53,698 nucleotides of DNA from a virus, in IMG/VR virus record IMGVR_UViG_3300028925_012628; one strand, written 5' to 3'. The notes below the pieces were generated by a model, which had not been told where the DNA came from, ran no database searches, and saw only the letters and a list, made by a program, of their open reading frames with translations. Both the position numbers and the translations under genes were made by a program. Positions 1 to 53,698 of this stretch are shown here, in pieces; the first letter of the stretch is position 1, and every line of letters begins with the position of its first letter.

Positions 1-99
1 TACATTACCAATGGTTTGTCCTGTACCAGTATCTACATTACCAATGGTTTGTCCTGTACCAGTATCTACATTACCAATGGTTTGTCCTGTACCAGTATC
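1..99. repeat. Three perfect copies of a 33-bp coding tandem repeat, TACATTACCAATGGTTTGTCCTGTACCAGTATC (minus-strand peptide DTGTGQTIGNV)
   Basis: Direct reading: units at 1-33, 34-66 and 67-99 are identical. Confidence 0.95.
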
Positions 100-20570: not shown

Positions 20571-20575
20571 AAAAA

Positions 20576-30399: not shown

Positions 30400-30400
30400 C

Positions 30401-35621: not shown

Positions 35622-35754
35622 CTGCCCCTGTGGGCATGACTGGTTTGATAACAAAGGTGGTGGTGATTGTCCTGAGTGTGGCAATGACAAGAACATCGGT
35701 CACCACTTCGATGAAGAAGATATGGATATGGAAGAGGAGGATGAGGATGAATAA
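35602..35754 (+). CDS. Small zinc-ribbon protein with an acidic tail (50 aa)
   Basis: Hand-found ORF MACMTHSCPCGHDWFDNKGGGDCPECGNDKNIGHHFDEEDMDMEEEDEDE. Confidence 0.45.
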   Translation: MACMTHSCPCGHDWFDNKGGGDCPECGNDKNIGHHFDEEDMDMEEEDEDE

Positions 35755-36570: not shown

Positions 36571-37114
36571 CGCTGACACCTCTGTGGGTGACTGGACCGC
36601 TAGTACTGGCACTGACCGTTATGCGATGATAGACGACGCACACGATGTCGCTGTCGCTACTGCTGACAATACGTATATATCGGTATCTGACGGTGGTGGT
36701 GAACCTGGTGCTGCTCATCCAATCACAGTTAGTCTAGGGTCCACAACAGACCCTGCAAGTGGTGCTTCCCATTCAGTGGTTGTACTGTGGAGTGATGGTG
36801 AAGGCTATGGCCAAGTGACGTTGAACGTGAATCTAAAGGATGGCAGTAGTTCGATAAAGAATGAAAACTTCACAGTGGATACTGGAAGTGCAACGCCTAT
36901 CACCTCTACTATGTCGCTTAGCGCAGCACAGGCAAACAGTATCTCTTCGTCGGGATACGGTAATTTAGGTTTAGTATTAACGTCTACTGACTCTGGTGGT
37001 AGTGCCACTACGAGCGTATACAGGGCTTACTTTGCGTGTCCTGACGCTAGCAGCTCTTCCGTACCAATAGCAGCAATAGCAATGAACACTTACAAACAAT
37101 TGGGGAATAACTAA
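36548..37114 (+). CDS. Hypothetical Ser/Thr/Gly-rich virion-type protein (188 aa)
   Basis: Track ORF; beta-rich composition; directly upstream of the fibre-like gene. Confidence 0.5.
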   Translation: MVQYAYPDADTSVGDWTASTGTDRYAMIDDAHDVAVATADNTYISVSDGGGEPGAAHPITVSLGSTTDPASGASHSVVVLWSDGEGYGQVTLNVNLKDGSSSIKNENFTVDTGSATPITSTMSLSAAQANSISSSGYGNLGLVLTSTDSGGSATTSVYRAYFACPDASSSSVPIAAIAMNTYKQLGNN

Positions 37115-37115
37115 T

Positions 37116-38747: not shown

Positions 38748-39073
38748 TGGCGATTAAAGATATCATTGTACCTGGGTTTATCGGCTCAGGAACTGTTGAA
38801 TACATAGTCAATCGTGGCTTTGAGGCTGACCTTTCAGGTATTGGGCTCGATGTCATTGGTGCTACTAGGTTTGACTTCAACTATGATCAGTATGTTATTA
38901 CCCAGCTTAGTGATGGGACTATCAAACTGAACAAGGGTTATCAGAAGTATGAGATAACCGAAGTCTTGCCAGCAGCCACAGACGTAGTAGCATCCCACTC
39001 ACTTCTATCAAGTGATCAGATTGCATACCAGCTAGGCGACGGCACACTGAAGTTCAGCAAAGGTGTTAGTTAG
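38747..39073 (+). CDS. Hypothetical protein (108 aa), last plus-strand gene
   Basis: Track ORF; TAATG overlap with the fibre-like gene. Confidence 0.55.
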   Translation: MAIKDIIVPGFIGSGTVEYIVNRGFEADLSGIGLDVIGATRFDFNYDQYVITQLSDGTIKLNKGYQKYEITEVLPAATDVVASHSLLSSDQIAYQLGDGTLKFSKGVS

Positions 39074-42000
39074 CATACGCTGCTGCCGTGCGTCTGGCAT
39101 AGGATGCCTTACTGGCCTCACTACCTAGCTTCTTATACAACAGGTATGCTTCAAGCTCGTCCGGCGACAATGAACCCAGTCTATTCTCTGGCACATACAT
39201 CTTACTAAACTTGCTGACGTTTGGATTACGACTGAGGATCTCTTCAATCCTTTGTTGTAGTAACTTATTCCGATTACCAACGAGGTCAGTATCTGTTATG
39301 CGTACACCAGATAATGCTGGAACCGTTCTGGCTAGTATATTAGCCACACTTATATTTCCATCCTCGCCCCTAATGGGTCGCCGTGGCCAGTCGGTTAATG
39401 ACCGAGCAGTTGATACAGCCCTACCATATCCAGGAAGCCTGCTTAACAATGCATCTAACTGGACGCTAGGATACTTAGGCAATTGTTCTGATCCAGATAC
39501 CTGCCCGATTAACCTCGCAGTAGGAGATTTCATTTCCGAGAAAGGACGCTGATGAAAGAACGAGTAATCAGCCATGTGTTCCACGGGTGCCTGCAATAGC
39601 GGATTGGCCCTGCTCATCAAGCCTCCACCAATTCTCTTGACTGTATCTAATACACCATGGCCTGGTTTGAGTAGGCTAAACACATCCTCGGCACCGCCAA
39701 TCATTCCACCCATGTTAGTCAAGTACCGGTTCATTCCTGAATCAGTCTTTCCTAAAGGCACACTAACACCAGTAGATATCCAATCAGGTATTGGCTCGTT
39801 GGGATCTTCCATTGAGCGTTTAGCTGAGGTTAGACCCTTAGTCATCATTGACATTCCACTGCTAGGATTGCTTAGCTCCTCCAAGACAAATGGAATCTGT
39901 CGTCTAGTAAACGTATAGAAGGGAATGATTCTACGGAAGTAATGTCTTTCCATCTGAGACAGTGCCTTGTAGTCCACCTGAGTTAGCTTGACCTTTGCAA
40001 TGGCATCAGGTAGGCTCATACCTTTTCTTAGGTAAGCAATGACAGGAGCCATTCGCAGATAGTATTCTGCCTCGTTTCCAAGTTGGTAACCGGCGGCTCG
40101 GACTCTCTCAGTTCCTCTTCCTAGCTGTCTAAGACCAGGAAGATTTCCACCCAGTTCCTTTTCGGATATAGACATTGCTTCCGTGAGCCTCTCACCAAAG
40201 CTGGTGTTAGGATTAACAGCATCACCTGCCTGATTGATACTAGGGATAATACTTTCCTTAGAATTTAAGAAACTCCCTACTCTATCCGATCCTTCAACAG
40301 CCGTGTCAGACATGTGCTGGCCAGGCCCAAGCAGCTCACCGCCAACAACACCATCAATCAGTTCCTGTGATGCAGCTTCGTCTGACAATCCCCTGCCTCT
40401 GAAGTATTCAACACTACCTAGGCCTTCTACACCATTACCCTTACGCAATGCCTTGGCATCTAGATACGGCTTTATCCACCTCATTGGACCCCACTGGTCT
40501 GGATCAAATGCTCCGCCGTACATGCTGTTAACAAAACCAGAGACAACATTACGGACATGGAATGCTGGCCACATGCTTGTAGCGTATTGTTTAAACAAGT
40601 CAGTGAACCAAATAGTCGCTGCCTGTAGCTCACTCTTAACATCATGCTTAACAAAAGAGCTGAGGTATCTCGTAAGGTCGCCACCTATCTCAGGATCAAT
40701 GACCATATTCTCGAACAGATTCTCGCCATGTTCTTTTAGGAATGAGTTAGAAAATTCATCCGTGTTATATAGAGAACTTCGTGGTATTGGATTGTCTATC
40801 CCCGTTAGGAATACCACCGCATCATCAACAACTTCCTCAACAGCCTCAGCAACAGCAGGCTTAGGGGATATCTTGGGTAGCACTGTCTCCGAAACATTTC
40901 CAGGTACCGTACTCAACGCCCTCGTAGGTGGCAGCTTAGTAGGGATGTCCTGAATGTTCAGCTTTCCAAATCCTGGAATAGAAGATGCTTGGTCTATCAG
41001 ACTTTGTGTTGAGCCTTGAGTACCTGTAGTGGGTAGAAGGTATGCATTGTTCTCACCATTTACCCAGCTATTTACCCACTCTGCTTCAGTTCTTGTTCCA
41101 TCTACTGCGGAATGGGGGTCGTACATCTTCGGAGCTGGCAAGCTATCCACCTGCTCTTTAGTTAAGACATACACGTTCATGTGTCTCTGAGGCTTAGGTG
41201 GAACTTGGGCAGCGGCCTCAATGTTTTCTAGGATAGTCTTTTCTATACGATGCTGTCCATGAATAACAACTACCTCACCGCCAGGCAATGTAATAGCCAT
41301 TGCAGGGTTATTGGAATTTGCCTTCTCTGTCATCATCTCTAGCACGTCGTCAGAGTACTCATTGTCTATGTAGTAACTACGCAGTGCTGGCACATCTTCT
41401 GGTTTAACTATCGTTGATTTTATATCAAGCCTGGTGGTCGCAATGTATGCTTCGAATACATCTATATCTTTACCACCTACTGTTACCACCATCTCGCCAG
41501 CGTCTGGGCTTTTAATATCTAGAGACTTTGCTATGTCAGATAGATTTTTCTGATCAACAACTACGGGAACTCTCGCCCCGCTAGCATCTATTGTCCAATG
41601 CTTCTTCTGTCCTGTCATTGCGTCACCAACTTGGTCACGCAATGACTCAAGGTCATTCACCACCTTGGGAGTCAAAGCGTTGGTTCTTCCTATGACTCTT
41701 TCTATCTCTGCCATTAGGTCACGGCCACCACCAAACCCAAGCACAAATTGGTTTGGCATCTCAGGTGGCTTCACCTGACTAACACCATCATCAAAGTATT
41801 CAACCAACTCCTCGTAATCTTGTGACACATGGCCCTGTAGATGTGCGTTCTCTATAGTATCTATCTCATCTAACTCAAGATACGGTTGCAGTTTTTTAGG
41901 GATAGTAACAACTAACTCATCCATATTATCGGCACTTACCAATGGACCTATCTCTTCTTTTGGAAGAGGTGCTTTGCCTTTATTGATATCATCCAAAGCC

Positions 42001-45000
42001 TCCAAAAGATCCATTTGCACTTTCTGAACAGTGCTATCTGTAGCTTTGGCAATCGCTGCATTGTTTACAGATGCTTCAATCTCCTCGGGAGTGAGACGGA
42101 TGGTCGATCTTTCTTTATTGCCCGCTTTCTGTGCTGCATTTAGTTTCGTTCTGAGAGATTTAGGGATTCCCTTTAATGCAAGAATCTGCTTAACTGTTCC
42201 TAACGGAATCGTGAATGAAGTATATCCAGGGATCTCATCGGCTACACTGGCAGGGATCTCATCGGCTACCTTATTAAACCCTGAGTAATCACCTGCGTTC
42301 CACGACTTTCTTAAAGGGTCAATCTGAGCCCGAGTGTCAGCATGAAACCGCTTCACTCCCGCAGGCATATCCCCAAGGTGATTTTCAATGATGTTGATTT
42401 CATCAGGGTTTAATTCAAAGATACCTGAACCGCTTTTTTTATCTAACAATGTAGTAAATTTAGCATGTAGTTCAGGTCCACCTACTCCGTGCTCCACAAT
42501 ATGCTTAGCAGTTCCGTGGGTTATCTTCACTGGAGCCAAGGAGTCTACTCGGGGTGGGGCGTTGGGCATGTCAACCCACCCTTCTACTGGTGCTTGATCA
42601 TCTATTGTACGAATAAACGACTCGTCCATTGCCGCTGCTTCGTCAGAATAGTCCACGCCTTCACCAACAACTCTTTGTGCTACTGGGGTATCTGTTGCTG
42701 CTACTACATCTTCTGCTACATCTGCTGTTGCTGCTACTACTGGAGTATCTGTTGCTGCTACTACTGGGGCAACATTCTGTGTCGGCAACTCGCTCTTCCT
42801 TGCAACACTCTTAACTGTTACCTCGTTGATAGAATCCCAGTTGTTATCACTCAGGTATTTAGCAATCTGTTCTTCTGTTTCGATGCCCTGCTTAGCGAGA
42901 AGATTGTAGAGTTCATCCACATTCTTAAATGAAACACGGTCGCCACTTCCTATTGCAAAGCCACCTGGATTCTTAAACCATTCGGCTATCTCTGGACCCC
43001 ACGTACTCTCCGCACTTAGAGCGTATGCTTCCATGTGTGCCCACTCTTCTGGATTGTGGGTCTTAACCCGCTGTAACACATTACGCTTAGCAATCACTGT
43101 GTCCATATCTAAAGACTTAAACAGATCTCGTAGATTAACTAAGTCCCGACCAGAGGTTTTCGTTAGCTCATTGTACCCCTCTGAGAACCGTGCATAGGCA
43201 TGTGTCGCAGCAATCTCACCGACTAGCTTAGCCGCAGTACCTGCCCGCATCACATCTTCATAGTAATCTGTTGCTGCTTTAATTGGGTCGGCAGAATAGA
43301 TACGCATACCTTTGCCTGCCGCATCTGGATTTCCCTCGGCAAGCATCTTTGCTATTTCCCTAATCTTCGGACTCCCCTTATCAACAGCAACTAGAATTTC
43401 TTCTCCATTACGGATTCCTGTAAATAGTTCTCCCGCATTCCTGGAGGCAGCAATAGCAGCTGCATCTGTAACTTCTGCCATTACCCCATCGTCTATCAAT
43501 CGCAACAGATATTCCTCGTCCATCGCAGCATCTATCCAGTGTTCATCCTTTACTAACTTATCTATTAAATCCTCTACTGGCTTCTCAAGTATACTACCTT
43601 GAGCCCGTGAGAAATTATCTTGTCCGTACTTTTTGAACCAACGGTTGAGTGTCCACGTTCCGCCCTTGATGTTCCGAAGATAATCCTGTCGTTGATGCTG
43701 TCTTCCTGTGATTGGGTTTAAGTTTTTAGGAGAGCTGACTAACTCATCCCCTTCTCGGGCCACGATGCTTCCGTATGTTTCTTTGTTTTTGTTATCCCGT
43801 GCTTCCTTTATTCTCGCTGACAGACTTTGCTTAGGTGTTTTTGTGATGGTACGAGGATCGTATAAGGCATAGTCATCCGTCAGACGTTCGATGTTAATGC
43901 CATTCTTTTGGGAGTAGTTAAATGATTCGTCGCCCATCGCCTTGAGGATACCTAACTCTTGACTCACCGTTCGTGTTGTTCCATCAGGCATCTGAGTTTT
44001 TATGTCTGCCATGGATGATGGCAATCTTGGACTAACACGACCCTTCACTACACTGCTAGGCATGGCGAGTGCCCAGTCATCTGGATTGTTTCTTGCGAGT
44101 TTCCGCATTCCGTCGACGGCTTGGGATATCTGGTCAGGTGTATTAGCTTGCTTGAGACTATCAATGATACCCGTGTAAGCGGAGTCAAGTTCGTTCAGTG
44201 CTTTTTCATCAACATCCCCAGCAAGTCCTTTCAGTATCCGCTTGTTGGAACTAGCCATGCGGGCTAACTCACTAGCGTAGGAGAGATCGTACTCAGGGAG
44301 CTCCAATGCATCTGTTCCATCCTTGAACTGCCATCCTTCTTGGGACAGACCTATCGCATCCCTGTTTCTCTCTATTTCTTTAAGGGCTTCTTCCTTTACA
44401 AGATGTGGTTTCTGCTTCATCAACTCATCAATATTGAGTAATGGAGTCTTAGCTAGGCGAACACGCATAGACTCGGTTAATATGCGACCCTGATGGGCAG
44501 ATGATTCCATCCTGCGGACGTGTTCAAGAATATCTTCTTGGACATCTATCGTGCGTGCATCCCATAGCATCTTAGGATTGAATACTCTGTTGGCGTGTAA
44601 CCCTAACCAACTTCCCCGCAACTTCTTGCCACCAAGATCAAGTGCCCTGTGATACGAATCAAAGCCTTTGCCTAAACCTGTATCAAGTCCAAGGTTGTAA
44701 TTACGCATCTTCGCTTTTTCAGGCAACCAACCTAGCAGGGTCTTACGTATTCCCTTGTTTGTGTTGGCACCACTAAACAGAGTTGGAACACCATACTCGA
44801 ATGTTGCACCAAGCGACTCTGCCCCAACCTCACTTATCTTTCGGTTGAGAGCGGCACCCTCTAGTGTTGGATGTAGTGATGAAATTGCAGAGGTCAGGAT
44901 ATCCTTTGCACTCATCTGTGACGACACCCCTGGAACGTCCAGCACTTCGGTTAGGTTGTCTAGTAACTTAGTGGGGATAATTGGGCCAGTTCTTTGCTTA

Positions 45001-45866
45001 TACTTCTGCACATCAGCGGCTGCCTCCAGCACAGAGTCCGTCTTAATCCTAGTCATTAACTGACTCTCTGTTAAGCGAACACTAGCCATTGCCGCTTCAT
45101 TAACTTTCCTTGCCTGTACCGCCGCTTCAGGGCTATGCTTCAATGCACTTGCAATCTCCTCTTCACCACGTTTAAACGCATCAATGAAGTTTTTGCCTGG
45201 TGTATCGAGAACGCCACTTTTCCTTAGCAAGCTATTTGCGACATCATCATACTTAGCAGCACCCTTAACTACATTCATTGCAGTTGATTTACCAAGTGCC
45301 TTGCCGCCTTGGTTGAGCACCCTTGTTCCTTTAACCAATCCACCGCCTATAAAAGTTCCTGGATCTAATAAGATCTCCGCTAAGAATCCAGCAGTATCGC
45401 CCCAGTCTAGGCCCTCTTTGTTCTCGCCTAGAGCACCCCATGACTCCAGCATCTCACGACCACCGGTGTAGTCTTCACGCTTAGTCAACCCAACCCTGTC
45501 ACTTATAAGTCCCAGTGGACCTGTACTCAATAGCTCACGAGGTTTTCCTGCCAGCAACCCACGGATAGCCCGTCCACCAAACATGTGGTCGAATGTTTCC
45601 CCAACAAACTGTAGGCCAGACAGTAGCCCACCGCCAATCTTTTCCAGCACCCCTTCTTCAGCTTCGGGAGTGAGCTGGTTATACATGGGTCCAGAAGATT
45701 TGGCTTGCTCTACTAACGCCTTCTGCGTTTCCACTGGCGATGCCTTGCTGATCGGTCGTTGGTACATAGCAGCAATGTCAGGCACAGCAGGAGCACCACC
45801 CAGCGTAATAGGTTGAAGACCAAGTTTTCGTAATCGTGCATTGAGTTCAGCTAGTGGATCTTGCAT
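39066..45866 (-). CDS. Giant 2266-aa virion/ejection-type protein of unknown function
   Basis: Track ORF; the last gene of the minus-strand late operon. I recognised no catalytic motif apart from a weak ParB-like VVVIHGQHRIEK. Confidence 0.7.
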   Translation of the reverse strand: MQDPLAELNARLRKLGLQPITLGGAPAVPDIAAMYQRPISKASPVETQKALVEQAKSSGPMYNQLTPEAEEGVLEKIGGGLLSGLQFVGETFDHMFGGRAIRGLLAGKPRELLSTGPLGLISDRVGLTKREDYTGGREMLESWGALGENKEGLDWGDTAGFLAEILLDPGTFIGGGLVKGTRVLNQGGKALGKSTAMNVVKGAAKYDDVANSLLRKSGVLDTPGKNFIDAFKRGEEEIASALKHSPEAAVQARKVNEAAMASVRLTESQLMTRIKTDSVLEAAADVQKYKQRTGPIIPTKLLDNLTEVLDVPGVSSQMSAKDILTSAISSLHPTLEGAALNRKISEVGAESLGATFEYGVPTLFSGANTNKGIRKTLLGWLPEKAKMRNYNLGLDTGLGKGFDSYHRALDLGGKKLRGSWLGLHANRVFNPKMLWDARTIDVQEDILEHVRRMESSAHQGRILTESMRVRLAKTPLLNIDELMKQKPHLVKEEALKEIERNRDAIGLSQEGWQFKDGTDALELPEYDLSYASELARMASSNKRILKGLAGDVDEKALNELDSAYTGIIDSLKQANTPDQISQAVDGMRKLARNNPDDWALAMPSSVVKGRVSPRLPSSMADIKTQMPDGTTRTVSQELGILKAMGDESFNYSQKNGINIERLTDDYALYDPRTITKTPKQSLSARIKEARDNKNKETYGSIVAREGDELVSSPKNLNPITGRQHQRQDYLRNIKGGTWTLNRWFKKYGQDNFSRAQGSILEKPVEDLIDKLVKDEHWIDAAMDEEYLLRLIDDGVMAEVTDAAAIAASRNAGELFTGIRNGEEILVAVDKGSPKIREIAKMLAEGNPDAAGKGMRIYSADPIKAATDYYEDVMRAGTAAKLVGEIAATHAYARFSEGYNELTKTSGRDLVNLRDLFKSLDMDTVIAKRNVLQRVKTHNPEEWAHMEAYALSAESTWGPEIAEWFKNPGGFAIGSGDRVSFKNVDELYNLLAKQGIETEEQIAKYLSDNNWDSINEVTVKSVARKSELPTQNVAPVVAATDTPVVAATADVAEDVVAATDTPVAQRVVGEGVDYSDEAAAMDESFIRTIDDQAPVEGWVDMPNAPPRVDSLAPVKITHGTAKHIVEHGVGGPELHAKFTTLLDKKSGSGIFELNPDEINIIENHLGDMPAGVKRFHADTRAQIDPLRKSWNAGDYSGFNKVADEIPASVADEIPGYTSFTIPLGTVKQILALKGIPKSLRTKLNAAQKAGNKERSTIRLTPEEIEASVNNAAIAKATDSTVQKVQMDLLEALDDINKGKAPLPKEEIGPLVSADNMDELVVTIPKKLQPYLELDEIDTIENAHLQGHVSQDYEELVEYFDDGVSQVKPPEMPNQFVLGFGGGRDLMAEIERVIGRTNALTPKVVNDLESLRDQVGDAMTGQKKHWTIDASGARVPVVVDQKNLSDIAKSLDIKSPDAGEMVVTVGGKDIDVFEAYIATTRLDIKSTIVKPEDVPALRSYYIDNEYSDDVLEMMTEKANSNNPAMAITLPGGEVVVIHGQHRIEKTILENIEAAAQVPPKPQRHMNVYVLTKEQVDSLPAPKMYDPHSAVDGTRTEAEWVNSWVNGENNAYLLPTTGTQGSTQSLIDQASSIPGFGKLNIQDIPTKLPPTRALSTVPGNVSETVLPKISPKPAVAEAVEEVVDDAVVFLTGIDNPIPRSSLYNTDEFSNSFLKEHGENLFENMVIDPEIGGDLTRYLSSFVKHDVKSELQAATIWFTDLFKQYATSMWPAFHVRNVVSGFVNSMYGGAFDPDQWGPMRWIKPYLDAKALRKGNGVEGLGSVEYFRGRGLSDEAASQELIDGVVGGELLGPGQHMSDTAVEGSDRVGSFLNSKESIIPSINQAGDAVNPNTSFGERLTEAMSISEKELGGNLPGLRQLGRGTERVRAAGYQLGNEAEYYLRMAPVIAYLRKGMSLPDAIAKVKLTQVDYKALSQMERHYFRRIIPFYTFTRRQIPFVLEELSNPSSGMSMMTKGLTSAKRSMEDPNEPIPDWISTGVSVPLGKTDSGMNRYLTNMGGMIGGAEDVFSLLKPGHGVLDTVKRIGGGLMSRANPLLQAPVEHMADYSFFHQRPFSEMKSPTARLIGQVSGSEQLPKYPSVQLDALLSRLPGYGRAVSTARSLTDWPRRPIRGEDGNISVANILARTVPALSGVRITDTDLVGNRNKLLQQRIEEILSRNPNVSKFSKMYVPENRLGSLSPDELEAYLLYKKLGSEASKASYARRTAAAYAN

Positions 45867-45899
45867 TTAATGATATCCGATTTTAACACAGGACTTTTG

Positions 45900-48251
45900 T
45901 TATTGACCGCCCCCGTATCCCCCAGTACCCATTCCGGCTGTGTTATTGGGAGCAGGGTTAAATCCTGGAGCCATGTATTGACTTCTATTTTGCAACGCCT
46001 CTATCTCTGCAATATTTGGAGGCATTTCGCCATTACCAGTCATTAATGAATTAAAAAACTCAGTTACCATTTTCCAAACTACAGGGTCTATTGATTCCGG
46101 TGGGGTGCTAAGCATAACATTACCATAACGAGGCATTCCTAGATTCAGCTTTGAACCTAGTGCTATCAATCCATCTGCACTGCCTAGTTTTCTGCTACCT
46201 CGTATTAAAGCTATTACATTCCGCGCTGCCGCAATCATACCTACACCAGTGGCATCAAAATCTAATGCATCCTGAACAGGTGATAACATACCCATCTCTT
46301 GCAATTGTGCATTAGCCTCATCCAGCGGAATAGTATCGTCAGTATTCAACTCTGGCGTGCCTTCAGTGGTCGTGGTTTCCTCTCCCACTTCAGCTGTTGA
46401 CTCTTCTGCCATCACATCTGTTAGCTCTTCAGTGGTAGGTTCACCACCTGCCTCCAATTCGTCAATGTTAGTTTCTATATCTAGAATTTCTTGTTCTATT
46501 AAATCAATCTGATCCTGGATCTTTCTTTGTTTATCTTGACTCGGCTCTCCATTTTTCTTTGCCAGCAATGCGAGGTGAGCATTCTTCAGATCAGCCAGCT
46601 TAAGTCTTCCATCTACAAGTGCATCTTGCTTCGCTTCTGCTGCATCTTCACGATCCCCTTTCCTCTCGCTGCTTCTTCTATTTGCGTCCCCCTCTGCTTT
46701 ATCTACTTCTGCCTTAGACGCTGCTGCCTTGGCATCTATCTCACCCTTGGCTTCCAGAAGTGCTAAGTCTTTCTGGTGATCATTGAGCGTGTTGTCAGAA
46801 TCAATCTTAGCCTCTGCCTCTGCCTTAGCCTTTACTGCATCAGCGGCTATCTGAGCTATCCTGACCGACGCAGCCTCATCACCATAAGCAAATGGGTTCT
46901 CTGGATTACGCCAGCCTTTGTCAATTTTTCTATTTCTAGCCAGCAATCCCTTGCGTCGTTCCTTTTTGCTGATTCGTTTTCCTGCTGTAGACTCTGCTCT
47001 GCCTGCTTGACTCTCAGATATGTACTGATCCTGCTCAGAATAAGGTTCGTCATCAGCTGCCCTTGCGTATCCACCCTTAGCCTGTCGCATACGTACCTTG
47101 CCGGATGACTCCTTGTCTCGTCCCTGTTGTTCACGAGCACCAGGTTTATCTCTGAAAATCACTCTCGTTATATTGCCATTCTCGTCCTTCACTTCTATAC
47201 GGTCCTTGAGCGATTTGTCATACAGACCACCACCAACAGTACCCTCTGTAGTTTCGGTAACTGGAATGGAGTCATTGCCTGGCTCGTGACCTGCGTCAAT
47301 CAACGCTCTGTTCTTGTCTTCATTCTCTTTATTGAGACGACGCTGCGTATCAGCCATCTCATCATTCATGGTTCCCTTCGTGCGTTTGTCCATCTCAACA
47401 TCCATTGCTGCATTTCTAATGGCTTCCTCAGCATGGTACTTCTGAACCCACGGGGAATCTTCTGGAGATATTGGACCACCATCACGTCTGCCGGAATCAA
47501 GGTTATCAATGCGTCTTTGTGCCTCGTCGGCATCCATCTGGTCCTTGGGATTTTCATAGCCAGCACTGTTTGGATTTGCCAAGCGTTCCTCAGAAGCTGC
47601 ATCATCCTCCTCAATAATTTCTGTAGTGCGTTCATTGAATTCTTTTTGTGTCTCAGTATGGGCATCAAATTTTTCATCGAAGCGAGCACCATCAACAGCC
47701 ATCTCTCCTGCGATTCTTTCCTCTTCCTCTTCCATCCCCATAAAACCTTTGCGGCCTTCTTCTAGGGCTTCGCTGCTAGCCTTGCCAGTATAGTATTCCA
47801 TCTCTTGCTCTGATGGCATTTCGGGCTCACCACCATGTTCAGGCTCGACAGTTGTATCCACTCCCCTGTTTAACTCTTCTTCTTCTTTAGTTAGTTGACG
47901 GACGGTTTCAGGAACTGGTTCGTCCCCCCTCCTAAGATCTGTCTCGATGGCAGATGATTCAACTTCAGGCATAACCGGTGGGGCAATACCTGCTTCTGCG
48001 ATGTTGGCAGGCGGTTGCACTGCGCTTAACATCATAGATTCCATAGATTGCCCTGTTGGATCTTCCATTGCAAAACGATCATCGGGTTTCCGAACTTGCG
48101 TTTCACGAAGCAGACCACCGCCGGGACCAGCCGATGCCTCAGCAGTAGCTAACGCCCTAGCATCCTCTTGAGAGATTCTTCCCCCACTCGCTGAACGGAT
48201 TTCTCTAACTCGTCGGTCTATTTGTTGTCGTGGTTGTTCGTATGTAGCCAT
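45900..48251 (-). CDS. Acidic 783-aa virion/ejection-type protein
   Basis: Track ORF 45900..48263. The ATG at 48251 overlaps the upstream TAA (TAATG). Long D/E/K-rich and coiled regions. Confidence 0.65.
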   Translation of the reverse strand: MATYEQPRQQIDRRVREIRSASGGRISQEDARALATAEASAGPGGGLLRETQVRKPDDRFAMEDPTGQSMESMMLSAVQPPANIAEAGIAPPVMPEVESSAIETDLRRGDEPVPETVRQLTKEEEELNRGVDTTVEPEHGGEPEMPSEQEMEYYTGKASSEALEEGRKGFMGMEEEEERIAGEMAVDGARFDEKFDAHTETQKEFNERTTEIIEEDDAASEERLANPNSAGYENPKDQMDADEAQRRIDNLDSGRRDGGPISPEDSPWVQKYHAEEAIRNAAMDVEMDKRTKGTMNDEMADTQRRLNKENEDKNRALIDAGHEPGNDSIPVTETTEGTVGGGLYDKSLKDRIEVKDENGNITRVIFRDKPGAREQQGRDKESSGKVRMRQAKGGYARAADDEPYSEQDQYISESQAGRAESTAGKRISKKERRKGLLARNRKIDKGWRNPENPFAYGDEAASVRIAQIAADAVKAKAEAEAKIDSDNTLNDHQKDLALLEAKGEIDAKAAASKAEVDKAEGDANRRSSERKGDREDAAEAKQDALVDGRLKLADLKNAHLALLAKKNGEPSQDKQRKIQDQIDLIEQEILDIETNIDELEAGGEPTTEELTDVMAEESTAEVGEETTTTEGTPELNTDDTIPLDEANAQLQEMGMLSPVQDALDFDATGVGMIAAARNVIALIRGSRKLGSADGLIALGSKLNLGMPRYGNVMLSTPPESIDPVVWKMVTEFFNSLMTGNGEMPPNIAEIEALQNRSQYMAPGFNPAPNNTAGMGTGGYGGGQ

Positions 48252-51200
48252 TATGCATTCCAACTAGAGGCGTTTGCGTTGTACATTGAATTAAGTAATT
48301 GTCTGTCTACTGCTTCCCGAGCTAACCGGTCATCAGCGTCAGCATAAAAATCTTGTGCTGTCATGCCAGCTTCTTGCAATCCAAGTTGATGCGCCAGTTC
48401 TCTGCGATTACGTACTTGATCTGCATGTTGCATTGCATACTGCCATGGTATATCAATCTCTGCTTTGCGTGAACCCAACAATGATTGTACCAAAGGAGAG
48501 ATTTTTCTCTGTGACTCTGTTCCTGTATCAATACTCATTCCCTGCTGAGCCTGCAAACCAGTACCACCTACGGCCTGATTGTACTCGCCCCAGTTCTGAG
48601 CTACCTGATTGTTCACCAGTGCCTGTATCTGTGACGGCTCTACACCACGACGACGCATGTCTGCTTTAGTTAGTCCACCAGCATTACTAACTAACATGTT
48701 ACCACCATAGTCAATATTACCATCACTGTCTTGCATAACGTCTAAGGGCACGCCTGAGAGCTCAGGAGCCAAATCGTAATCATCACGATCACGCCTTTCT
48801 ATCTTCTTATTCTTGCTAAGATCAATTGCATCACCACTCTCTGGTGGGAGGCTGATTTCTGGGCTAGATAAATCTTTACCATCACCGAGGTAAATTGTTT
48901 CCTCATCCTCCGTGGCCGGTGGACGGATAACCCCTGGAGTAGTTAGATTTGTACCACCATCGAGGTGTCTTCTTTCTTCTTCCCCAACAAGTTGATCTTG
49001 TCCTCTTTCAGGAAGTTCACCGCCCACTGATGCTGATCTACTTGCTGCTGCCTGCCTTGTCTGTGCCCAGTCTTCTGTGTCAGCAGGTGCACTAGTATTA
49101 GTCTTACCAAACTCTGCACCCCTGTAGACATACCCTCCACCGGACGTATCCCAGTTATCAGGATTGTTTAGGTCTTCGGGGCTAGCTGAGCCTGCATCTG
49201 CTTCCGGTGCTTGAACAGTCCTATTGTCACCCCCGAAACCTTCTATCTCATTCCAATATCCGATTTCTCCATGCCCATCGCCTTCATCATCATAAGCAGC
49301 ATCGCCTACTTCAGAGAACTTATCTGCTGGGTCAGGGGTATATGGCTGAAGACCACCTTCGTTGGCCATGTCACCGCTCCATCCAGCATCCCAGCTCCAC
49401 TGCTTACCATTCTCATCCTCAAATATTTTAAGGGTTGTTTCCGAGCGGGAGCCAGGGTATTGAATTTTTTCCCCTACCTCTTTCATTCCTTCAGTGCCAG
49501 GAACCTTCTCTGCTGCTAGGTTACCACCACCTTCGTCCGCTGGTCCTTCTTTACCAACCTCAGTCCATTCTGCTTTGCCTGGCCAGTTATCGTTTGCCCA
49601 TACGCTACGCTCAAAGCGACGACCATCTGCTCCTTCAAAAGTCGTTACTTTATGGCCTGCATACATCGGGCCACTGCCTCTGTTACTCTCTTCATCGACC
49701 TGACGCATCTTCAACCCGTAGGCTTTGTCAATTCCTAACTCTTCCTGTATACGTTTGGAACCTTCAACATCTCTTGTGTTTAAGTCTCCGTGGAACATGC
49801 TCCATGCAGCTATCCCTTCGTCTTTCTTTTTTGTTTCCTCAAGCATCTCAGGCGTTGGGTCTACCGATACTACACGTCCGTTCTCGTCCGCAAACTCTCC
49901 ATACGTAGGGATGCCAGGCTTGCCGATGTCAGACATTTTGTAGTAGTACTTGCCATCCTTCTTACCACCAATATTAACCTGCCCAAACCTACGTCTACCG
50001 TCAACCAGTCTACGTCTTTCTGCTGCTTCTGCTTTTGCCTTGGCCCTTGCATCTTCTCTCGGCCTTACCTTCGGTTCATCACTAACTTCACCGGCATCTA
50101 CCTTATCCTTGAATTCTTCAAGTGCTGGCTTGTCCTTATTTTCCTGCCATCCAGCAGGAGGATCAATAAACATCACATTCCAATTACCTGACCCCTTGGG
50201 GTACTCCGATGCAAAACCACCGTATTCACCCTCTTTCCTGTCAGAGTCTTTCTTGTACTGTTTTCCATTGACAGTAACCATATCTGGCTTAACTGCTGGC
50301 GTGACCATTGGTGGTCCAACTGCACGAGGGTCGGGGTCTGTACCATAGTTGCGACCTGGTTCTAGTTCCGTCTTCTCTCCTGCATCATCTGCTGGCTTAT
50401 CCTGTCCTTCTTTATCCCATTCATCGAACGGAGGAGAATTACCATTATTCTCTTTAACGTATTTGTCTATCCTAGCCTTCCCATATTGCTTGTGGTATTC
50501 CTCTTTTCTGTCAGGACCGACTGACCCCCAGCCTTCCCAAGATGGCTCAAACTTTGGCTTCACTGGATCTGGTGTATCGTCCGATTGGTCTGGTAGAGGC
50601 TGTCCAGGGTTCTGCTCTCGCCACTCGGCTTCTAGGCCAGAATCCATCGGACTACCAGCTGATCCACCACTGAATGAATCACCATGTACTGGTGGCTGTT
50701 CCTGTTCTAGGTTACCACCGCCATCATCCATAACCCTGTTGTTCACTGGATCAAAACCTGGAGGTGTAGCTATGGTAGGAGATTCACTACCGGAAGGAGC
50801 CACCTCTTCGTTGAACTGGCTGGTTGTAGGCAAGCTGTTGGGGCCCGCTACTTGGGCCTCCGTAAAATCCGAGGGGGAACCTCCAGACAAGGCATTACTT
50901 AAGGCATCTCCGCCAGCCTGTGCATCTCCGCCAGCCGGTGCTTGTCCGCCAGCAAATGAGCTTCTCCCTACAAGATTATTTTTGCTTTTGTCCGCAGCAC
51001 TATCAATTATTTGTTGTTGAATATCATTGCCCAGCTCAGGAGTGAGATCTCCCTGTCCATAAGGCAGACCAGTGGCATCCCCCATTAGTTCAAGTGCTTC
51101 ATCATGAAAATTCGTCATGTCATTATACGAAAACCCGCCCATACGAGTGTCTGGGGCCCATTCAAATGGGTCCCATGTGTTGGTGTCTTTCCCTTGAGGT

Positions 51201-52303
51201 ATTTGGCCAGGATTACCGGGACGATCACCAACTTCACCTTGTTGCTTTCCAAGAATTGGACCGCCAGGGAATACTTCAGGCTGTTGCATCGGGGCTTGCC
51301 CTTCCGGTCCGAAGCCCTGTCCGAAGGCTGACGCTACAGGGTCGTTCTGATATGGAGCCATATCAGGCTGACCGTAATCTTGCTGCGTCTCCATTGTGTC
51401 AGGACCCATGTCAATAGTCGGGTTATCAAACTGACTGTAATTTTGCTCGCTCCACTCTGGGCCATAATTCGCATCATCAAGGGGAGTTGCAGTGGGAGTT
51501 GGAGTGGGACTTCCTCCGCCCATTCCTTCCATGCCTCGCCAGCTACCGGCTCGGATAGGCCCTCTTCCTAGCTGGGAACCCATGCTGTTCATTCCAGAAA
51601 TGACAGGGTCTCCGCTCCATGGTGGCTGTGTTCCGCCTTCTGGACGGGGATATAGTTCAGGTGGATTCTGACCATACCAGTTGTGTGGCCGTCTTTGTCT
51701 CCCATCATCCATAACCAACTTTCGCCCATCACCATCTGTTGGCCAGTCTATGGGTTTATATGGGTACTGTTCCTGACCGCCAGGTCCAGCCATATCACCA
51801 GTTCCAGCGACCATTCCCATAGGATTGGCACCACCCATATCACCAGCTGCACCGCCGCTGTAATAAATGGGAGGCTGAATGTCACCTTCTCCAGCGACTT
51901 TATTAATGAAACCACGGTCTGGGTCAACAAAAGTCTCAGTAGAGGGTAGCTGGGGTGGATGTAGAGTTAATCTGTCTGCTCCAGTAGGCAGAGCGTTCAT
52001 GCTGCCCATACCAGCCAAGCCCGGTTGATTGCCCATGCCATCACTAAGACCCATTGCATTATTGCTATTAAATCCAGCGGCCAACTCACCAGCCCTAGTA
52101 TCTGCCTGTAGGATGGATTCTTCTTTCCTCGCATACTCGGCAGGATCAGTACCAAAGCCACCACCCGTGCCAAATGCATCCTTGAATGGATCGCCAGACT
52201 TCTTCTGGTTCTTCTGAGTGCCATTGTATGCACCTGGTCCATTACCGGCACGTTTTGGTTTCGTGGGATTTCCAGGGCCGTATTGGTTTGTGTTCTGTGG
52301 CAT
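48251..52303 (-). CDS. 1350-aa Gly/Pro/Asp/Trp-rich low-complexity virion/ejection-type protein
   Basis: Track ORF; starts 14 nt after the stop of the giant wrap-around ORF. Confidence 0.65.
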   Translation of the reverse strand: MPQNTNQYGPGNPTKPKRAGNGPGAYNGTQKNQKKSGDPFKDAFGTGGGFGTDPAEYARKEESILQADTRAGELAAGFNSNNAMGLSDGMGNQPGLAGMGSMNALPTGADRLTLHPPQLPSTETFVDPDRGFINKVAGEGDIQPPIYYSGGAAGDMGGANPMGMVAGTGDMAGPGGQEQYPYKPIDWPTDGDGRKLVMDDGRQRRPHNWYGQNPPELYPRPEGGTQPPWSGDPVISGMNSMGSQLGRGPIRAGSWRGMEGMGGGSPTPTPTATPLDDANYGPEWSEQNYSQFDNPTIDMGPDTMETQQDYGQPDMAPYQNDPVASAFGQGFGPEGQAPMQQPEVFPGGPILGKQQGEVGDRPGNPGQIPQGKDTNTWDPFEWAPDTRMGGFSYNDMTNFHDEALELMGDATGLPYGQGDLTPELGNDIQQQIIDSAADKSKNNLVGRSSFAGGQAPAGGDAQAGGDALSNALSGGSPSDFTEAQVAGPNSLPTTSQFNEEVAPSGSESPTIATPPGFDPVNNRVMDDGGGNLEQEQPPVHGDSFSGGSAGSPMDSGLEAEWREQNPGQPLPDQSDDTPDPVKPKFEPSWEGWGSVGPDRKEEYHKQYGKARIDKYVKENNGNSPPFDEWDKEGQDKPADDAGEKTELEPGRNYGTDPDPRAVGPPMVTPAVKPDMVTVNGKQYKKDSDRKEGEYGGFASEYPKGSGNWNVMFIDPPAGWQENKDKPALEEFKDKVDAGEVSDEPKVRPREDARAKAKAEAAERRRLVDGRRRFGQVNIGGKKDGKYYYKMSDIGKPGIPTYGEFADENGRVVSVDPTPEMLEETKKKDEGIAAWSMFHGDLNTRDVEGSKRIQEELGIDKAYGLKMRQVDEESNRGSGPMYAGHKVTTFEGADGRRFERSVWANDNWPGKAEWTEVGKEGPADEGGGNLAAEKVPGTEGMKEVGEKIQYPGSRSETTLKIFEDENGKQWSWDAGWSGDMANEGGLQPYTPDPADKFSEVGDAAYDDEGDGHGEIGYWNEIEGFGGDNRTVQAPEADAGSASPEDLNNPDNWDTSGGGYVYRGAEFGKTNTSAPADTEDWAQTRQAAASRSASVGGELPERGQDQLVGEEERRHLDGGTNLTTPGVIRPPATEDEETIYLGDGKDLSSPEISLPPESGDAIDLSKNKKIERRDRDDYDLAPELSGVPLDVMQDSDGNIDYGGNMLVSNAGGLTKADMRRRGVEPSQIQALVNNQVAQNWGEYNQAVGGTGLQAQQGMSIDTGTESQRKISPLVQSLLGSRKAEIDIPWQYAMQHADQVRNRRELAHQLGLQEAGMTAQDFYADADDRLAREAVDRQLLNSMYNANASSWNA

Positions 52304-52317
52304 CTTATAATCCTAAG

Positions 52318-53698
52318 TTAAGTGTTGTATTTTACTACGTCTGGTGTTTTTGCTGCAATCATCGGAGTCATCGAGGCTACCGTTGACTGGTCTAGTCCTT
52401 GCCGCAGATTGCGTTTCTTATTGCCTAAGTCATAAGCAAGTTTAGCTAGGTCTAGACCTTGTTTAGATGCTGCTGTTTTAGAAGCCATTTCATTTGCTTC
52501 AGCGGCTTGTCCCAAAGATGCCGCCATTGAAGCTGCCTCTGGGGCTGCTGCACCACGCATGGCATCTGCTATCTGACCCTGAAGTTCACCGGAAGCCGCT
52601 GGGGCATTTCCAAGTGCCGCTGCTACATCTGCGGATGAAGGAGCATTGATTCTTCCTGGCTGATCTCCAGCATTGGCAATCGCTCCACGCCCACCATCTC
52701 CAGGGGCTGCGTCTTGATAGCGACTGTATCCACCGGTGGTTGTATTGACATAGCCAACAGGACCCTTCAAGTCTGTATACAGACTCTTCCGTTGTTTCCC
52801 AAGCATTCCCATCAAACCGCCAAGTGCATTCCACTTGTCTTGATTAATAAGACGTTGCCCTGCTAATGCTTCTGACTTGCTGCGTGCTTCTCTAGCTGAC
52901 TTGTCAAATGCGGCCTGTTGGGCTCGAGCAGCTGCCTCACGCTCTGCGTTTATTCGCATCATCTCAATAGCGTCAGCCGTGGACATATGACCTTGTCCTT
53001 CGCCTCCTGGCTCTAGGTTACCTTGCCCAGCACCGCCACCAAAATCTATATTTATGTCCCCTATAGTTGCCTCACCACCTGTACCTGTACCTGTACCTGT
53101 ACCTGTACCACCTGTTGGATTTGATATTACGCCATCTGAACTCATGCTAGACCCAGGAGCCCATGGCCATGTTATTGTGCCATTGCCATCAACCACAGAC
53201 CCGCCTTCGTATGGTTCAGGTCCATATGTTCCATCAGGGCGTGGATATTGCCAACCATCGGGGCCCCATATTCGCCCGCCATTTTCAGGATCTCCCTCCC
53301 AGTCCGGTCTAGTATCTGGAATCTCACCTGGATCGCCAATATTACCATCATCATCGCCGGATTCTACATTCTCTTCTCCATATGGTGGAGTCGGCCCATA
53401 TGTTCCATCCGCTTGTAGATATTGCCAAATCTCTCCATCCCAATATCGGTCCGGGCTAGTATCTGGAATCTCACCTGGATCGCCAATATTACCATCGGTG
53501 CCGGATTCTACATTCTCTTCTACATCTTGGTCAGTCCAACTATCATCAACACCATAAGGTAGGCCTGTGGCCGGATCAATTCCTTCACGATCACCTGTAC
53601 CTGTACCAGTATCTACATTACCAATGGTTTGTCCTGTACCAGTATCTACATTACCAATGGTTTGTCCTGTACCAGTATCTACATTACCAATGGTTTGT
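52318..53698 (-). CDS. 3' part of the same giant ORF (stop codon at 52318-52320)
   Basis: Track ORF 52318..53196 starts at the first GTG, but the same frame is open up to 53698 (...GTGQTIGNVDTGTGTGDREGIDPATGLPYGVDD...). 53697-53196 is a multiple of 3. Confidence 0.8.
   Translation of the reverse strand, partial: QTIGNVDTGTGQTIGNVDTGTGQTIGNVDTGTGTGDREGIDPATGLPYGVDDSWTDQDVEENVESGTDGNIGDPGEIPDTSPDRYWDGEIWQYLQADGTYGPTPPYGEENVESGDDDGNIGDPGEIPDTRPDWEGDPENGGRIWGPDGWQYPRPDGTYGPEPYEGGSVVDGNGTITWPWAPGSSMSSDGVISNPTGGTGTGTGTGTGGEATIGDINIDFGGGAGQGNLEPGGEGQGHMSTADAIEMMRINAEREAAARAQQAAFDKSAREARSKSEALAGQRLINQDKWNALGGLMGMLGKQRKSLYTDLKGPVGYVNTTTGGYSRYQDAAPGDGGRGAIANAGDQPGRINAPSSADVAAALGNAPAASGELQGQIADAMRGAAAPEAASMAASLGQAAEANEMASKTAASKQGLDLAKLAYDLGNKKRNLRQGLDQSTVASMTPMIAAKTPDVVKYNT
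53077..53106 (-). repeat. (ACCTGT)x5 hexanucleotide repeat encoding a (GT)n dipeptide run inside the giant ORF
   Basis: Direct reading; the track peptide shows GGTGTGTGTGTGGE. Confidence 0.9.
53600..53698. repeat. Further copies of the same 33-bp unit. 53614..53698 (85 nt) is identical to 1..85, an assembly overlap that indicates a circular contig.
   Basis: Direct reading: units at 53614-53646 and 53647-53679, a 19-nt partial unit at 53680-53698, and a partial unit at 53600-53613 before them. Confidence 0.9.

Follow-up and report, generated by a model that had tools for sequence, protein, structure and literature searches.

The end of the virion operon is, in podoviruses, the place of internal or ejection proteins. 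Those of T7 and P22 (gp14-gp15-gp16 and gp7-gp20-gp16) are encoded by consecutive genes at its distal end, with the largest last; they are alpha-helical, diverge fast and swap domains between members. Ejection proteins of this type typically evolve fast and are usually recognisable by size and synteny only (PMC8954989). N4 gp50 and the cargo of crAss-like phages are giant proteins that the capsid houses until they are ejected in a partly unfolded state, with terminal regions for packaging and injection and a middle that carries the activity (PMC13434306, PMC10172136); in crAss001 such cargo, partly unfolded for ejection, reaches ~5.5 MDa (PMC10172136). Polyvalent proteins are giant products of the virion operon with replaceable internal domains and a predicted delivery with the DNA (PMC5512222), and the ART-PolyVal domain class has been argued to be packaged and injected (Iyer et al. 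2017, PMC5512222). The ~54-kb podoviruses of the Microbacterium cluster EK/Burro, finally, devote 25% of their genome to a giant protein associated with the virion (PMC7302621). This Burro/EK gp31/gp27 is an ORFan of >4400 aa, highly divergent between relatives and virion-associated in Burro (PMC7302621, PMC8281081).

Here, we analyse four giant genes, gpA to gpD, of a 53,698-nt viral sequence (the window, meaning the whole stretch of DNA that was analysed). We give a probability of about 55% to the reading that they encode oversized internal virion (ejection or cargo) proteins of a podovirus. The analysis shows gene order, conservation pattern, family distribution, an ART domain in relatives and composition; that the proteins are in the virion, that they are ejected and what they would do afterwards is inferred.

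Four giant genes at the end of the late operon

The four genes are real: contiguous open reading frames that adjoin one another on the minus strand and end the late operon, preceded by the MCP, TerL, portal and tail genes. The features are as follows.

4944..1 joined to 53613..52318, minus: gpA, at least 2079 aa; the frame runs across the window ends minus the 85-nt overlap
1..4944, minus: N-terminal 1648 codons of gpA, ATG at 4944
52318..53613, minus: C-terminal 431 codons of gpA plus stop (53614-53698 repeats 1-85)
53600..53698, same array at 1-99, minus: 33-nt repeat encoding the 11-aa TGTGQTIGNVD in gpA; assembly break point
1582..1662, minus: dockerin-type/EF-hand-like Ca-binding repeat, gpA aa 1095-1121 (PF00404, E 3.9e-8, 33.8 bits)
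48251..52303, minus: gpB, 1350 aa, G/P/D-rich, pI 4.5, no Cys
45900..48251, minus: gpC, 783 aa from ATG (787 aa if from an upstream TTG), E/A-rich, pI 4.6
39066-45866, minus: gpD, 2266 aa
42912..45866, minus: gpD N-module, aa 1-985
40947..42926, minus: gpD variable middle, aa 981-1640
39066..40796, minus: gpD C-module, aa 1691-2266, alpha-helical, motifs WPAFHxRN and KRIIPFYTFTRRQxPFVLEEL
30621-30878: holin-like gene

The original prediction of four contiguous giant genes (2079, 1350, 783 and 2266 aa) at the operon end, spanning 19,446 nt or 36% of the genome, agrees with our computed 19,449 nt, or 36.3% of 53,613 bp (the 53.6-kb genome after removal of the 85-nt overlap). Circular closure of the window depends on the 33-nt repeat: both ends lie inside one perfect tandem array, overlaps of 19, 52 or 85 nt are all compatible with it, and because the copy number is uncertain the gpA length is a minimum. 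There is a 1-nt gap ahead of gpA, gpA and gpB are separated by 14 nt and gpC and gpD by 33 nt, and the gpB stop and gpC start overlap as TAATG; this spacing indicates co-translation. The same proteins, among them a gpC that is 100% and a gpD that is 92% identical, are encoded in independent assemblies, and the frames are thus not artefacts.

The block resembles the T7 and P22 sets in being consecutive, distal and largest-last. It differs in having four genes instead of three, each 1.7- to 10-fold larger, in taking 36% of the genome against ~17% for T7 gp14-gp16 (computed from coordinates), in three of the four proteins being largely low-complexity, and in having, among gpA-gpD, neither a gp14-like member of ~200 aa with 4-5 TM segments nor a transglycosylase domain. 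The EK/Burro phages are likewise ~54-kb podoviruses with a giant divergent ORFan, but theirs is a single gene ahead of the portal gene, and the gpD C-module alignment (A4) reached a probability of only 0.04% in hhalign with the C-terminal 1000 aa of Akoni gp31.

gpD and its modular family

Among 27 homologues of gpD, the N and C modules are conserved and the middle is variable. The most conserved part, aa 1-181, has many invariant Gly and the motif GFxxE(I/V)xLDPxT(F/Y), and is predicted to be without stable structure despite this conservation; aa 182-965 are predicted to be mostly alpha-helical. The middle is shared only with a close relative (L004; gpD 92% and helicase 98% identical) and partly with P0004, other relatives having different inserts, and a phmmer search of 1.84 billion representative proteins returned no relative of it. 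In the variable middle of two gpD relatives, P0008 (aa 1365-1493 of 2457) and P0012, an ART-PolyVal domain scores above the gathering cut-off; Pfam over 22 family members found this single domain in 2 and DUF4326 in 1.

The C-module matches the C-terminus of Jasmine gp29 by hhalign (94%, E 1e-7, 317 columns), and it was found at 22 GTDB loci in MAGs of many phyla. The open reading frame could be delimited at 18 of these loci, and at 17 the module lies at the C-terminus of a protein of 858-2996 aa, the exception being a 242-aa frame with a weak short match. The C-module defines a family that is widespread at the C-termini of giant podovirus proteins. We define this unnamed family as 'Jasmine gp29-like' by a ~570-aa helical C-terminal module in a protein of roughly at least 860 aa, with the motifs WPAFHxRN and (K/R)R(I/L)(I/V)PFY(T/S)F; the A4 alignment, the GTDB loci and the hhalign result place gpD in it.

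In eight resolved phage contexts (L001, L002/L003, L004, L006, L007, L009, Cellulosimicrobium phage DS1 and the Arthrobacter podovirus Jasmine), drawn from marine metagenomes as well as from cultured phages of Arthrobacter and Cellulosimicrobium, the gpD homologue closes the series of large structural genes, ahead of the early or lysis genes. The window phage is probably a podovirus itself, given that L009 encodes an SU10-type podovirus adaptor and Jasmine is a podovirus. Jasmine gp29, the 1783-aa protein of DS1 and Microbacterium phage Shocker gp37, all annotated 'hypothetical protein', have a C-module homologous to that of gpD (hhalign 94%; tblastn chain), share with it a weak N-terminal motif, GGFxxEVxLDPxTY, and are, like gpD, encoded by the last structural gene. 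In these phages, however, it is the sole giant gene (~1800 aa), with ordinary-sized proteins before it and endolysin and holin directly after; they have Actinobacteria hosts and their own DNA polymerase, unlike the window phage, in which none was found.

The gpD family also resembles the polyvalent proteins (PMC5512222) in its giant virion-operon products, its replaceable internal domains and the ART-PolyVal domain of two relatives, and their predicted delivery with DNA follows the same logic as proposed here. Encoding among virion genes, which would imply packaging, is a feature that gpA-gpD share with them. Two or more effector or LPD domains per polypeptide are not seen: gpB-gpD have no Pfam domain and gpA has the dockerin repeat, and gpA-gpD lack every polyvalent domain of the catalogue (MPTase, ART, ArdC-N, SNF2, methylase, ParB, MuF, LPDs). 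Phage_Mu_F in particular had no Pfam match in gpA-gpD or the 22 gpD relatives, and the catalogue as represented in Pfam is without the gpD N and C modules. The earlier suggestion of an ejected cargo or polyvalent system is partly supported, namely by position, the ART-PolyVal domain of two relatives and composition.

Composition, divergence and the search for enzymes

The hydrophobic fraction is 0.21 in gpA-gpC, 0.30 in gpD and 0.32 in the rest of the proteome. The description of all four proteins as low-complexity accordingly applies to gpA-gpC and not to gpD, which has an ordinary composition and normal entropy. Nor are they rich in W (1.7-1.9% in gpA and gpB against a 1.7% background, lower in gpC and gpD) or in repeats, a single significant internal repeat being present besides short tandem arrays. 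The first 200 aa of gpA are strongly basic and K/E/A/R-rich, and the remainder is acidic with low hydrophobicity. The four proteins have pI values of 4.5-5.4, one Cys in 6478 residues (~37 would be expected if they were as rich in Cys as the other late proteins; the probability of at most two is ~4e-14) and no TM-grade segment in a Kyte-Doolittle scan (maximum 19-residue mean 1.54). Being virtually Cys-free, acidic, free of TM segments and, in gpA-gpC, low in hydrophobicity, they are suited to passage through a narrow channel.

In gpA-gpC the conserved parts lie only at the ends, and sizes shift by >1000 aa between close relatives. Conservation of gpA is confined to the last ~222 aa (52318-52986); its L007 counterpart has 459 aa instead of 2079, with 80% identity between the C-termini. 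In gpB the N-terminal ~240 and C-terminal ~220-410 aa are conserved and the middle is replaced or expanded; the L004 protein has 2394 aa against 1350 here and is 62% identical over the C-terminal third. The N-terminal ~530 aa of gpC are conserved (40-55%) and the C-terminal ~250 aa variable, identity to L004 being only 55% over half of the length. We count this divergence from L004 and L007 in favour of the ejection reading, as fast evolution of the kind seen in ejection proteins.

Pfam, PHROGs and NCBIfam returned no family for gpA-gpD except for the dockerin/EF-hand-type repeat of gpA, which lies above the PF00404 cut-off of 22.9 bits and has similar DxDxDG loops nearby; gpA-gpC had no PDB match. 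Tblastn of gpA-gpD found nothing in 50,697 GenBank phage records, nor did a peptidoglycan-hydrolase domain come to light. The gpD modules had no PDB match by sequence or profile, and Foldseek of their AF2 models against PDB and BFVD gave nothing significant; these models are mediocre (pLDDT ~62), which makes the fold searches weak tests, and they cover the N- and C-modules of gpD. The cryptic enzymatic domains once considered for the block thus did not emerge from any of these searches, phmmer with the gpD middle included. No characterised ejection protein was matched by Pfam, PHROGs (including gp14/15/16), NCBIfam, Foldseek with the weak models or hhalign, which gave the gpD modules a probability of <=1% against T7 gp15/gp16.

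In agreement with the original prediction, Pfam and PHROGs reveal neither a DNA or RNA polymerase nor an endolysin or integrase in the genome, although it does have a holin-like gene. Phages of such size commonly lack a DNA polymerase. The genome encodes SSB, an SF2 helicase, a RecE-like exonuclease and RusA, a lambda/P22-style set leaning on the host replisome, and the absence is not the remarkable feature it had seemed.

A proposed ejection role and its alternatives

The positional argument for ejection proteins holds for gpA-gpD as the last genes of the virion operon, and it is strengthened by the eight contexts of gpD relatives, by ART-PolyVal in the variable middle of two of them and by a composition that suits narrow-channel passage. 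We propose that the four proteins would be made late, from one tightly coupled operon that follows the tail genes, and loaded into the procapsid via conserved terminal modules: the last ~220 aa of both gpA and gpB, the first ~530 aa of gpC and the two gpD modules. After adsorption they would be extruded through the portal-tail channel, preceding the DNA, with a composition suited to unfolded passage and refolding outside the cytoplasm. gpD may be the counterpart of the largest ejection protein (the T7 gp16/N4 gp50 position) and may build or dock the conduit by means of its helical modules and Gly-rich N-terminus, and its middle may be a slot for lineage-specific effectors, an ADP-ribosyltransferase in some relatives and an unknown ~650-aa insert here. 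gpA-gpC would be fast-evolving, largely disordered cargo or spacers, whose middles expand and contract freely. Several points speak against this reading: the searches above gave no similarity to a characterised ejection protein, neither a small multi-TM protein of the gp14 kind nor a peptidoglycan hydrolase turned up, and one copy of each of gpA-gpD already amounts to 0.71 MDa, so that in the usual numbers they would take up much room in a phage with 53.6 kb of DNA.

It is unlikely, in our estimate, that some or all of gpA-gpC are instead external extended appendages with affinity for host or particle surfaces, in the form of fibres, whiskers, adhesins or capsid decoration, and with middles made hypervariable by host-range arms races. 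Their divergence and indels between close relatives are as extreme as those of the adjoining tail-fibre region, and their Cys-poverty is common to obvious external proteins (one Cys each in the 829-aa tail protein and MCP, two in the fibre). The Ca-binding repeats of gpA, a motif typical of extracellular proteins, would be equally compatible with an external location, and so would the weak phrog_19395 ('tail fiber protein; host specificity') matches that two distant C-module proteins gave (E 9e-5 and 4.5e-4). In Pfam and PHROGs, gpA-gpD themselves matched no fibre or tape-measure family. However, the charged, disordered and helical composition (E/K/A/R/D/G/P) is unlike that of the phage's own T/S/G/N/V beta-rich tail and fibre proteins, and no Ig, FN3, collagen or beta-helix repeats were found in gpA-gpD by Pfam or PHROGs. 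Moreover, it is the C-terminus that gpA and gpB conserve, and in fibres conservation normally lies at the N-terminal end, by which they attach; a separate fibre gene lies on the opposite strand (37116-38747); and the ART effector of gpD relatives would be senseless outside the cell.

We regard it as improbable that the proteins are late but unpackaged, for instance as disordered scaffolds for a compartment of assembly or replication inside the cell, or as host-takeover proteins. The acidic, disordered, low-complexity composition would suit it, as would the Q-rich and P/G/M-rich low-complexity proteins elsewhere among the morphogenesis genes; against it, the distal structural-operon placement after the tail genes is conserved across distant podoviruses, including cultured ones, and host-takeover genes would be expected in the early block, on the plus strand.

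The size class of gpD and its N-module/middle/C-module layout recall N4 gp50, and no polymerase is found elsewhere in the genome, a lack for which a hidden N4- or crAss-type virion RNA polymerase, or another replication or transcription enzyme, might compensate. Such an enzyme is nevertheless very improbable. Neither a single-subunit (T7-like) nor a two-DPBB RNAP domain was found in gpA-gpD by Pfam, PHROGs and NCBIfam, or in the gpD modules by PDB and Foldseek searches, with no RNAP or DNAP family match at E<=1 (Pfam) or E<=0.1 (PHROGs), and the composition of gpA-gpC is incompatible with a large globular enzyme. The only region of gpD able to hold one, the middle, is not conserved even inside the family, had no relative in the phmmer search and, unlike N4 gp50, cannot therefore be an essential polymerase, which would be expected to be the most conserved part. 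In addition, the genome encodes a sigma-70 region-4-type HTH protein together with its host-dependent replication accessories. That gpA-gpD are tape-measure-like length determinants of a long tail is scarcely credible: they are large, helical, Gly/Ala-rich proteins downstream of the head genes, and tape-measure proteins occur among the non-significant BFVD matches (all E>0.07, TM<0.1), but neither they nor the genome match a tail tube, sheath or TMP family in Pfam or PHROGs, four such genes would be unprecedented, and the relatives are podoviruses by the SU10-type adaptor and the cultured Jasmine.

Returning to the ejection reading, we tentatively suggest, at clearly less than even odds, a joint reading whereby the gpD family is an undescribed, phylum-spanning podovirus delivery scaffold and gpA-gpC are an inflated, megadalton-scale disordered cargo. 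If so, the Gly-rich N-terminus and the 'RIIPFYTF' C-module of gpD would handle capsid loading and passage across the envelope, and its middle would be a free slot for plugged-in effectors (ART, DUF4326, unknown 650-aa inserts), which would make the family analogous in function to MuF-type polyvalent proteins and to polymorphic toxins. gpA-gpC, inflated in this marine clade, would then have a post-ejection role of their own, which may be to coat or shield the incoming DNA, to span an unusually thick or complex envelope, or to form a condensate.

Genome layout and composition of the giant genes

The genome in the window is phage-like and falls into three strand blocks. Its two ends (1-99 and 53600-53698) both fall in a single perfect 33-nt tandem repeat, which is why they have 19, 52 or 85 bases in common; the 85-nt 'circular' overlap thus comes from the repeat, and circular closure rests on it.

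Strand blocks, giant genes (gpA-gpD) and other genes of the genome (P, assigned with Pfam/PHROGs)
21991 down to 1, minus: late block
About 22386-38747, plus: early/replication block
53698 down to 39066, minus: second minus-strand stretch
4944..1 joined to 53613..52318, minus: gpA, 2079 aa after removal of the 85-nt overlap
52303..48251, minus: gpB, 1350 aa
48251..45900, minus: gpC, 783 aa from an ATG overlapping the gpB stop codon as TAATG
45866..39066, minus: gpD, 2266 aa
5815-8304: tail/structural protein (P)
9492-9884, minus: 130-aa protein of M, P, G and Q only, between the portal and tail genes
10655-12823, minus: portal (P), with a poly-Q tract at its C-terminus
13325-15058: TerL (P)
16296-17426: MCP (P)
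17451-18662, minus: 403-aa Q-rich protein, 5' of MCP, scaffold-like by position
20723-21991: metallophosphatase (P)
30621-30878, plus: holin-like gene (phrog_689, E 8e-8; weak XhlA)
31090-31275: CsrA-like gene (P)
37116-38747, plus: probable tail-fibre gene, on the strand opposite to the other virion genes
Also assigned (P): SSB, HTH / sigma-70 region-4 protein, RecE-like PD-(D/E)XK exonuclease, SF2 helicase and RusA

The four giant genes are separated by gaps of 1-33 nt, span 19,449 nt (36.3% of 53,613 bp) and encode proteins of 229, 145, 86 and 248 kDa (gpA to gpD) with pI values of 4.5-5.4. Because 33 nt is a multiple of three, any copy number of the repeat keeps the gpA frame, and gpA is therefore real; its 2079 aa are a minimum, as the copy number is uncertain, and an exact-sequence lookup of gpB aimed at this copy number returned no record. 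Independent assemblies (ENA, JGI, Logan and Tara) encode a 92%-identical gpD and a 100%-identical gpC, as well as more distant homologues of gpA-gpD in the same order, confirming the original prediction that four contiguous giant genes fill 36% of the genome.

The accompanying description of these proteins as low-complexity, repeat-rich and Trp-rich holds only in part. The hydrophobic fraction of gpA-gpC is 0.21, compared with 0.32 in the genome's 51 remaining proteins, and the enriched residues are A/E/D/K/G in gpA, G/P/D in gpB and E/A in gpC, whereas gpD is of normal composition (hydrophobic fraction 0.30, entropy 3.84); residue composition reveals no Trp enrichment. Short tandem arrays do exist, but the repeats amount to an 11-aa tandem array, a (T/S)TQG array and one 22-aa duplicate, which sits in a pair of roughly 48 aa seen by eye, and chunked self-BLAST for internal duplications yielded a single 22-aa repeat and nothing more. 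No hydrophobic segment of transmembrane grade was found in gpA-gpD, which are acidic throughout except for the first 200 aa of gpA (net charge +18). Their 6478 residues include one Cys, whereas the Cys frequency of the remaining late proteins predicts about 37 (for two or fewer, P about 4e-14). Cys is scarce in the obvious external virion proteins too, so Cys poverty marks a virion protein and not an internal one specifically. Low complexity also extends to other morphogenesis proteins, namely the 130-aa protein, the Q-rich protein and the portal. Another hypervariable spot of the genome comprises the tail-fibre gene, with 114-nt (38-aa) repeats at 38121-38335 and many VDTxxxILxDT heptad-like repeats, and the adjoining 188-aa gene (36548-37114), whose relatives are only 33-38% identical.

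The genome-wide Pfam and PHROGs searches found neither a DNA nor an RNA polymerase, and no endolysin or integrase, in agreement with the original prediction, and there is no polymerase-sized unassigned ORF outside the giant genes. Phages with such a replication gene set, such as lambda and P22, normally lack a DNA polymerase. The absent endolysin is a genuine annotation gap; among the small ORFs beside the holin-like gene (30401-31275), only the CsrA-like gene is assigned. A 143-aa protein (29736-30167, plus) weakly resembles the catalytic domain of serine recombinases (resolvase/invertase; Pfam E 0.003, phrog_125 E 3.5e-7), the Pfam match covering positions 44-144 of a 145-position profile and leaving the N-terminal part of the domain unmatched; it is not credible as an integrase. 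No tRNAs were found in the genome, and scans for sigma-70 promoters and terminators near the strand-switch regions gave no excess over shuffled expectation. Two arrays of 10-nt direct repeats (20574-20613 and 20650-20709, about 35 nt apart) occupy the intergenic gap 3' of the metallophosphatase gene and 5' of the late genes, reading on the minus strand CAAACCGGAA/TTAAACCGGA x6 and AAAGCGGATT x4; their spacing of one helical turn suggests candidate regulator binding sites or iterons.

Divergence of gpA-gpC and modularity of the gpD family

Homologues of gpA-gpC are restricted to a marine clade (n=6 for gpC), and only protein ends are conserved: in gpA the last ~220 aa (80% identical to a 459-aa protein in the related locus L007), in gpB the N-terminal ~240 and the C-terminal 220-410 aa, and in gpC the N-terminal ~530 aa. 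Compared with the relative L004, identity is 98% for the helicase, 92% for gpD, 55% over half the length of gpC and 62% over the C-terminal third of gpB. Lengths vary as well, with gpB reaching 2394 aa in L004 and gpA ranging from 459 to at least 2079 aa across relatives. No Pfam domain was found in ten syntenic gpA-gpC homologues.

For gpD, a search of 5.8 billion proteins retrieved 27 homologues, and BLAST and alignment delimited two conserved parts, the N-module (aa 1 to ~985) and the C-module (about aa 1620-2266), with a variable middle between them. The middle (aa 981-1640) is common only to the 92% relative and partly to the relative P0004, and an exhaustive phmmer scan of 1.84 billion representative proteins gave one marginal 36-bit match only. 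A ParB-like 'VVIHGQHR' string noticed by eye in this region was dropped, as it had no statistical support. The middle of two gpD relatives carries an ART-PolyVal domain (PF18760), in P0008 at aa 1365-1493 of 2457 with a score of 47.7 bits (cut-off 31.2), and one further relative carries DUF4326.

The C-module is widespread and carries no Pfam annotation, PHROGs giving only a weak match to phrog_19395, and its recognition is new. A back-translation of its strongest motif, [FML][KR]R[ILV][IVH]PFY[TS][FY], located 22 loci in GTDB genomes, including SAR202 Chloroflexi (39% identity), Planctomycetes, Chitinophagales, CPR bacteria, Gammaproteobacteria, Clostridium, Ignavibacteriae and others; at 17 of the 18 loci with a delimitable ORF, it is C-terminal in a protein of 858-2996 aa. 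The nearest GTDB relative, at 39% identity, is a 1464-aa protein; its contig, 11.9 kb long, was assigned to a SAR202 MAG (L011, QEVV01000018.1), which is a weak hint of the host or a mere binning artefact. Starting from these loci, tblastn searches led to proteins of phages in culture: Cellulosimicrobium phage DS1 (1783-aa protein), Microbacterium phage Shocker (gp37) and Arthrobacter phages Jasmine (gp29, 1803 aa), Adat, Brad and others. Profile comparison aligned the gpD C-module with the C-terminus of Jasmine gp29 over 317 columns (94% probability, E 1e-7), while the N-module has only a short motif in common with gp29 (26% probability). In every resolved context (loci L001, L002/L003, L004, L006, L007 and L009, and phages DS1 and Jasmine), the gpD-family gene closes the structural operon as its last large gene, followed directly by lysis genes in DS1 and Jasmine; Jasmine is itself a podovirus, and L009 encodes a podovirus adaptor of SU10 type. 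In P0020, a 1448-aa gpD relative, an insertion of ~270 aa interrupts the C-module motif of highest conservation (RLVPWY / TFSRRNLP). Its first residue is Cys, its last two are GN with Thr next in the chain, and it includes an ILGWVLTDGH block similar to LAGLIDADG. This insertion has no Pfam match at E<=0.001 and looks like a putative intein; an intein at this site would point to a motif critical for function.

Functional readings of gpA-gpD

Apart from a dockerin repeat, searches of Pfam, PHROGs and NCBIfam with gpA-gpD found nothing. Neither the four proteins nor the portal or MCP had a tblastn match among 50,697 GenBank phages, in which TerL gave one weak virome match; a gpD scan of IMG/VR, a PDB sequence search with gpB, gpC and gpD and a PDB profile search with both gpD modules were also empty. 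Homology to T7 gp15 and gp16, a comparison proposed originally, was not detected by hhalign, nor was homology to the last 1000 aa of the giant Microbacterium phage protein Akoni gp31. AF2 with family alignments predicted mostly alpha-helical modules (pLDDT 62.7 for the C-module and 61.6 for the N-module; pTM 0.55 each); residues 1-181, the most conserved stretch of gpD, are nevertheless predicted to lack stable structure (pLDDT <40). Foldseek with these models against PDB (both modules) and BFVD (N-module) returned nothing at E<0.07 or TM>0.15, a weak negative because model quality is mediocre.

Every functional step for gpA-gpD is one that we infer, and the best reading of gpD is the largest ejection protein with variable effector cargo. 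This reading draws on its late operon position, on the retention of that position from marine metagenomes to cultured actinobacterial podoviruses, on an architecture of N-module, replaceable middle and C-module analogous to that of N4 gp50, in which the terminal parts are used for injection and encapsidation, and on the presence of an ART domain, of the injected-effector type, in the slot. Ejection proteins are matched by size and synteny, diverge fast and unfold to exit the capsid (PMC8954989, PMC10172136). gpA-gpC fit this class, although in size and in disorder they go far beyond any described set. The main alternative, which concerns gpA-gpC and not gpD, is that they act externally as fibres or adhesins, favored by the dockerin-type Ca-binding repeats in gpA and by hypervariability. 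A polymerase hidden in the giants, as originally suggested, is very unlikely, since the only candidate region, neither of low complexity nor under family constraint, is the non-conserved one.

Implications for podovirus biology

The giants belong to a known kind, the podovirus internal/ejection proteins and polyvalent-type effector carriers; what is new is how large they are, with four genes taking up 36% of the genome, and the predominance of disordered sequence. If they are ejected, over a third of the coding capacity would enter the cell along with the DNA, and we know of no larger ejected share for a phage of ~50 kb. The ejected sequence would be mostly intrinsically disordered, which would challenge the view of ejection proteins as compact helical conduit builders. 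There is precedent in the ~54-kb EK/Burro podoviruses, in which a giant virion-associated ORFan gene takes up 25% of the genome (PMC7302621, PMC8281081).

The C-module is a more solid and reusable result than the reading of ejected mass. MAG contigs ranging from Chloroflexi to CPR bacteria carry it as well, and the family sometimes carries an ADP-ribosyltransferase. Its presence in cultured, tractable podoviruses (Jasmine, Adat, Shocker and DS1) provides an experimental entry point: proteomics or cryo-EM of Jasmine could show what this family, at present 'hypothetical' in every annotation, does.
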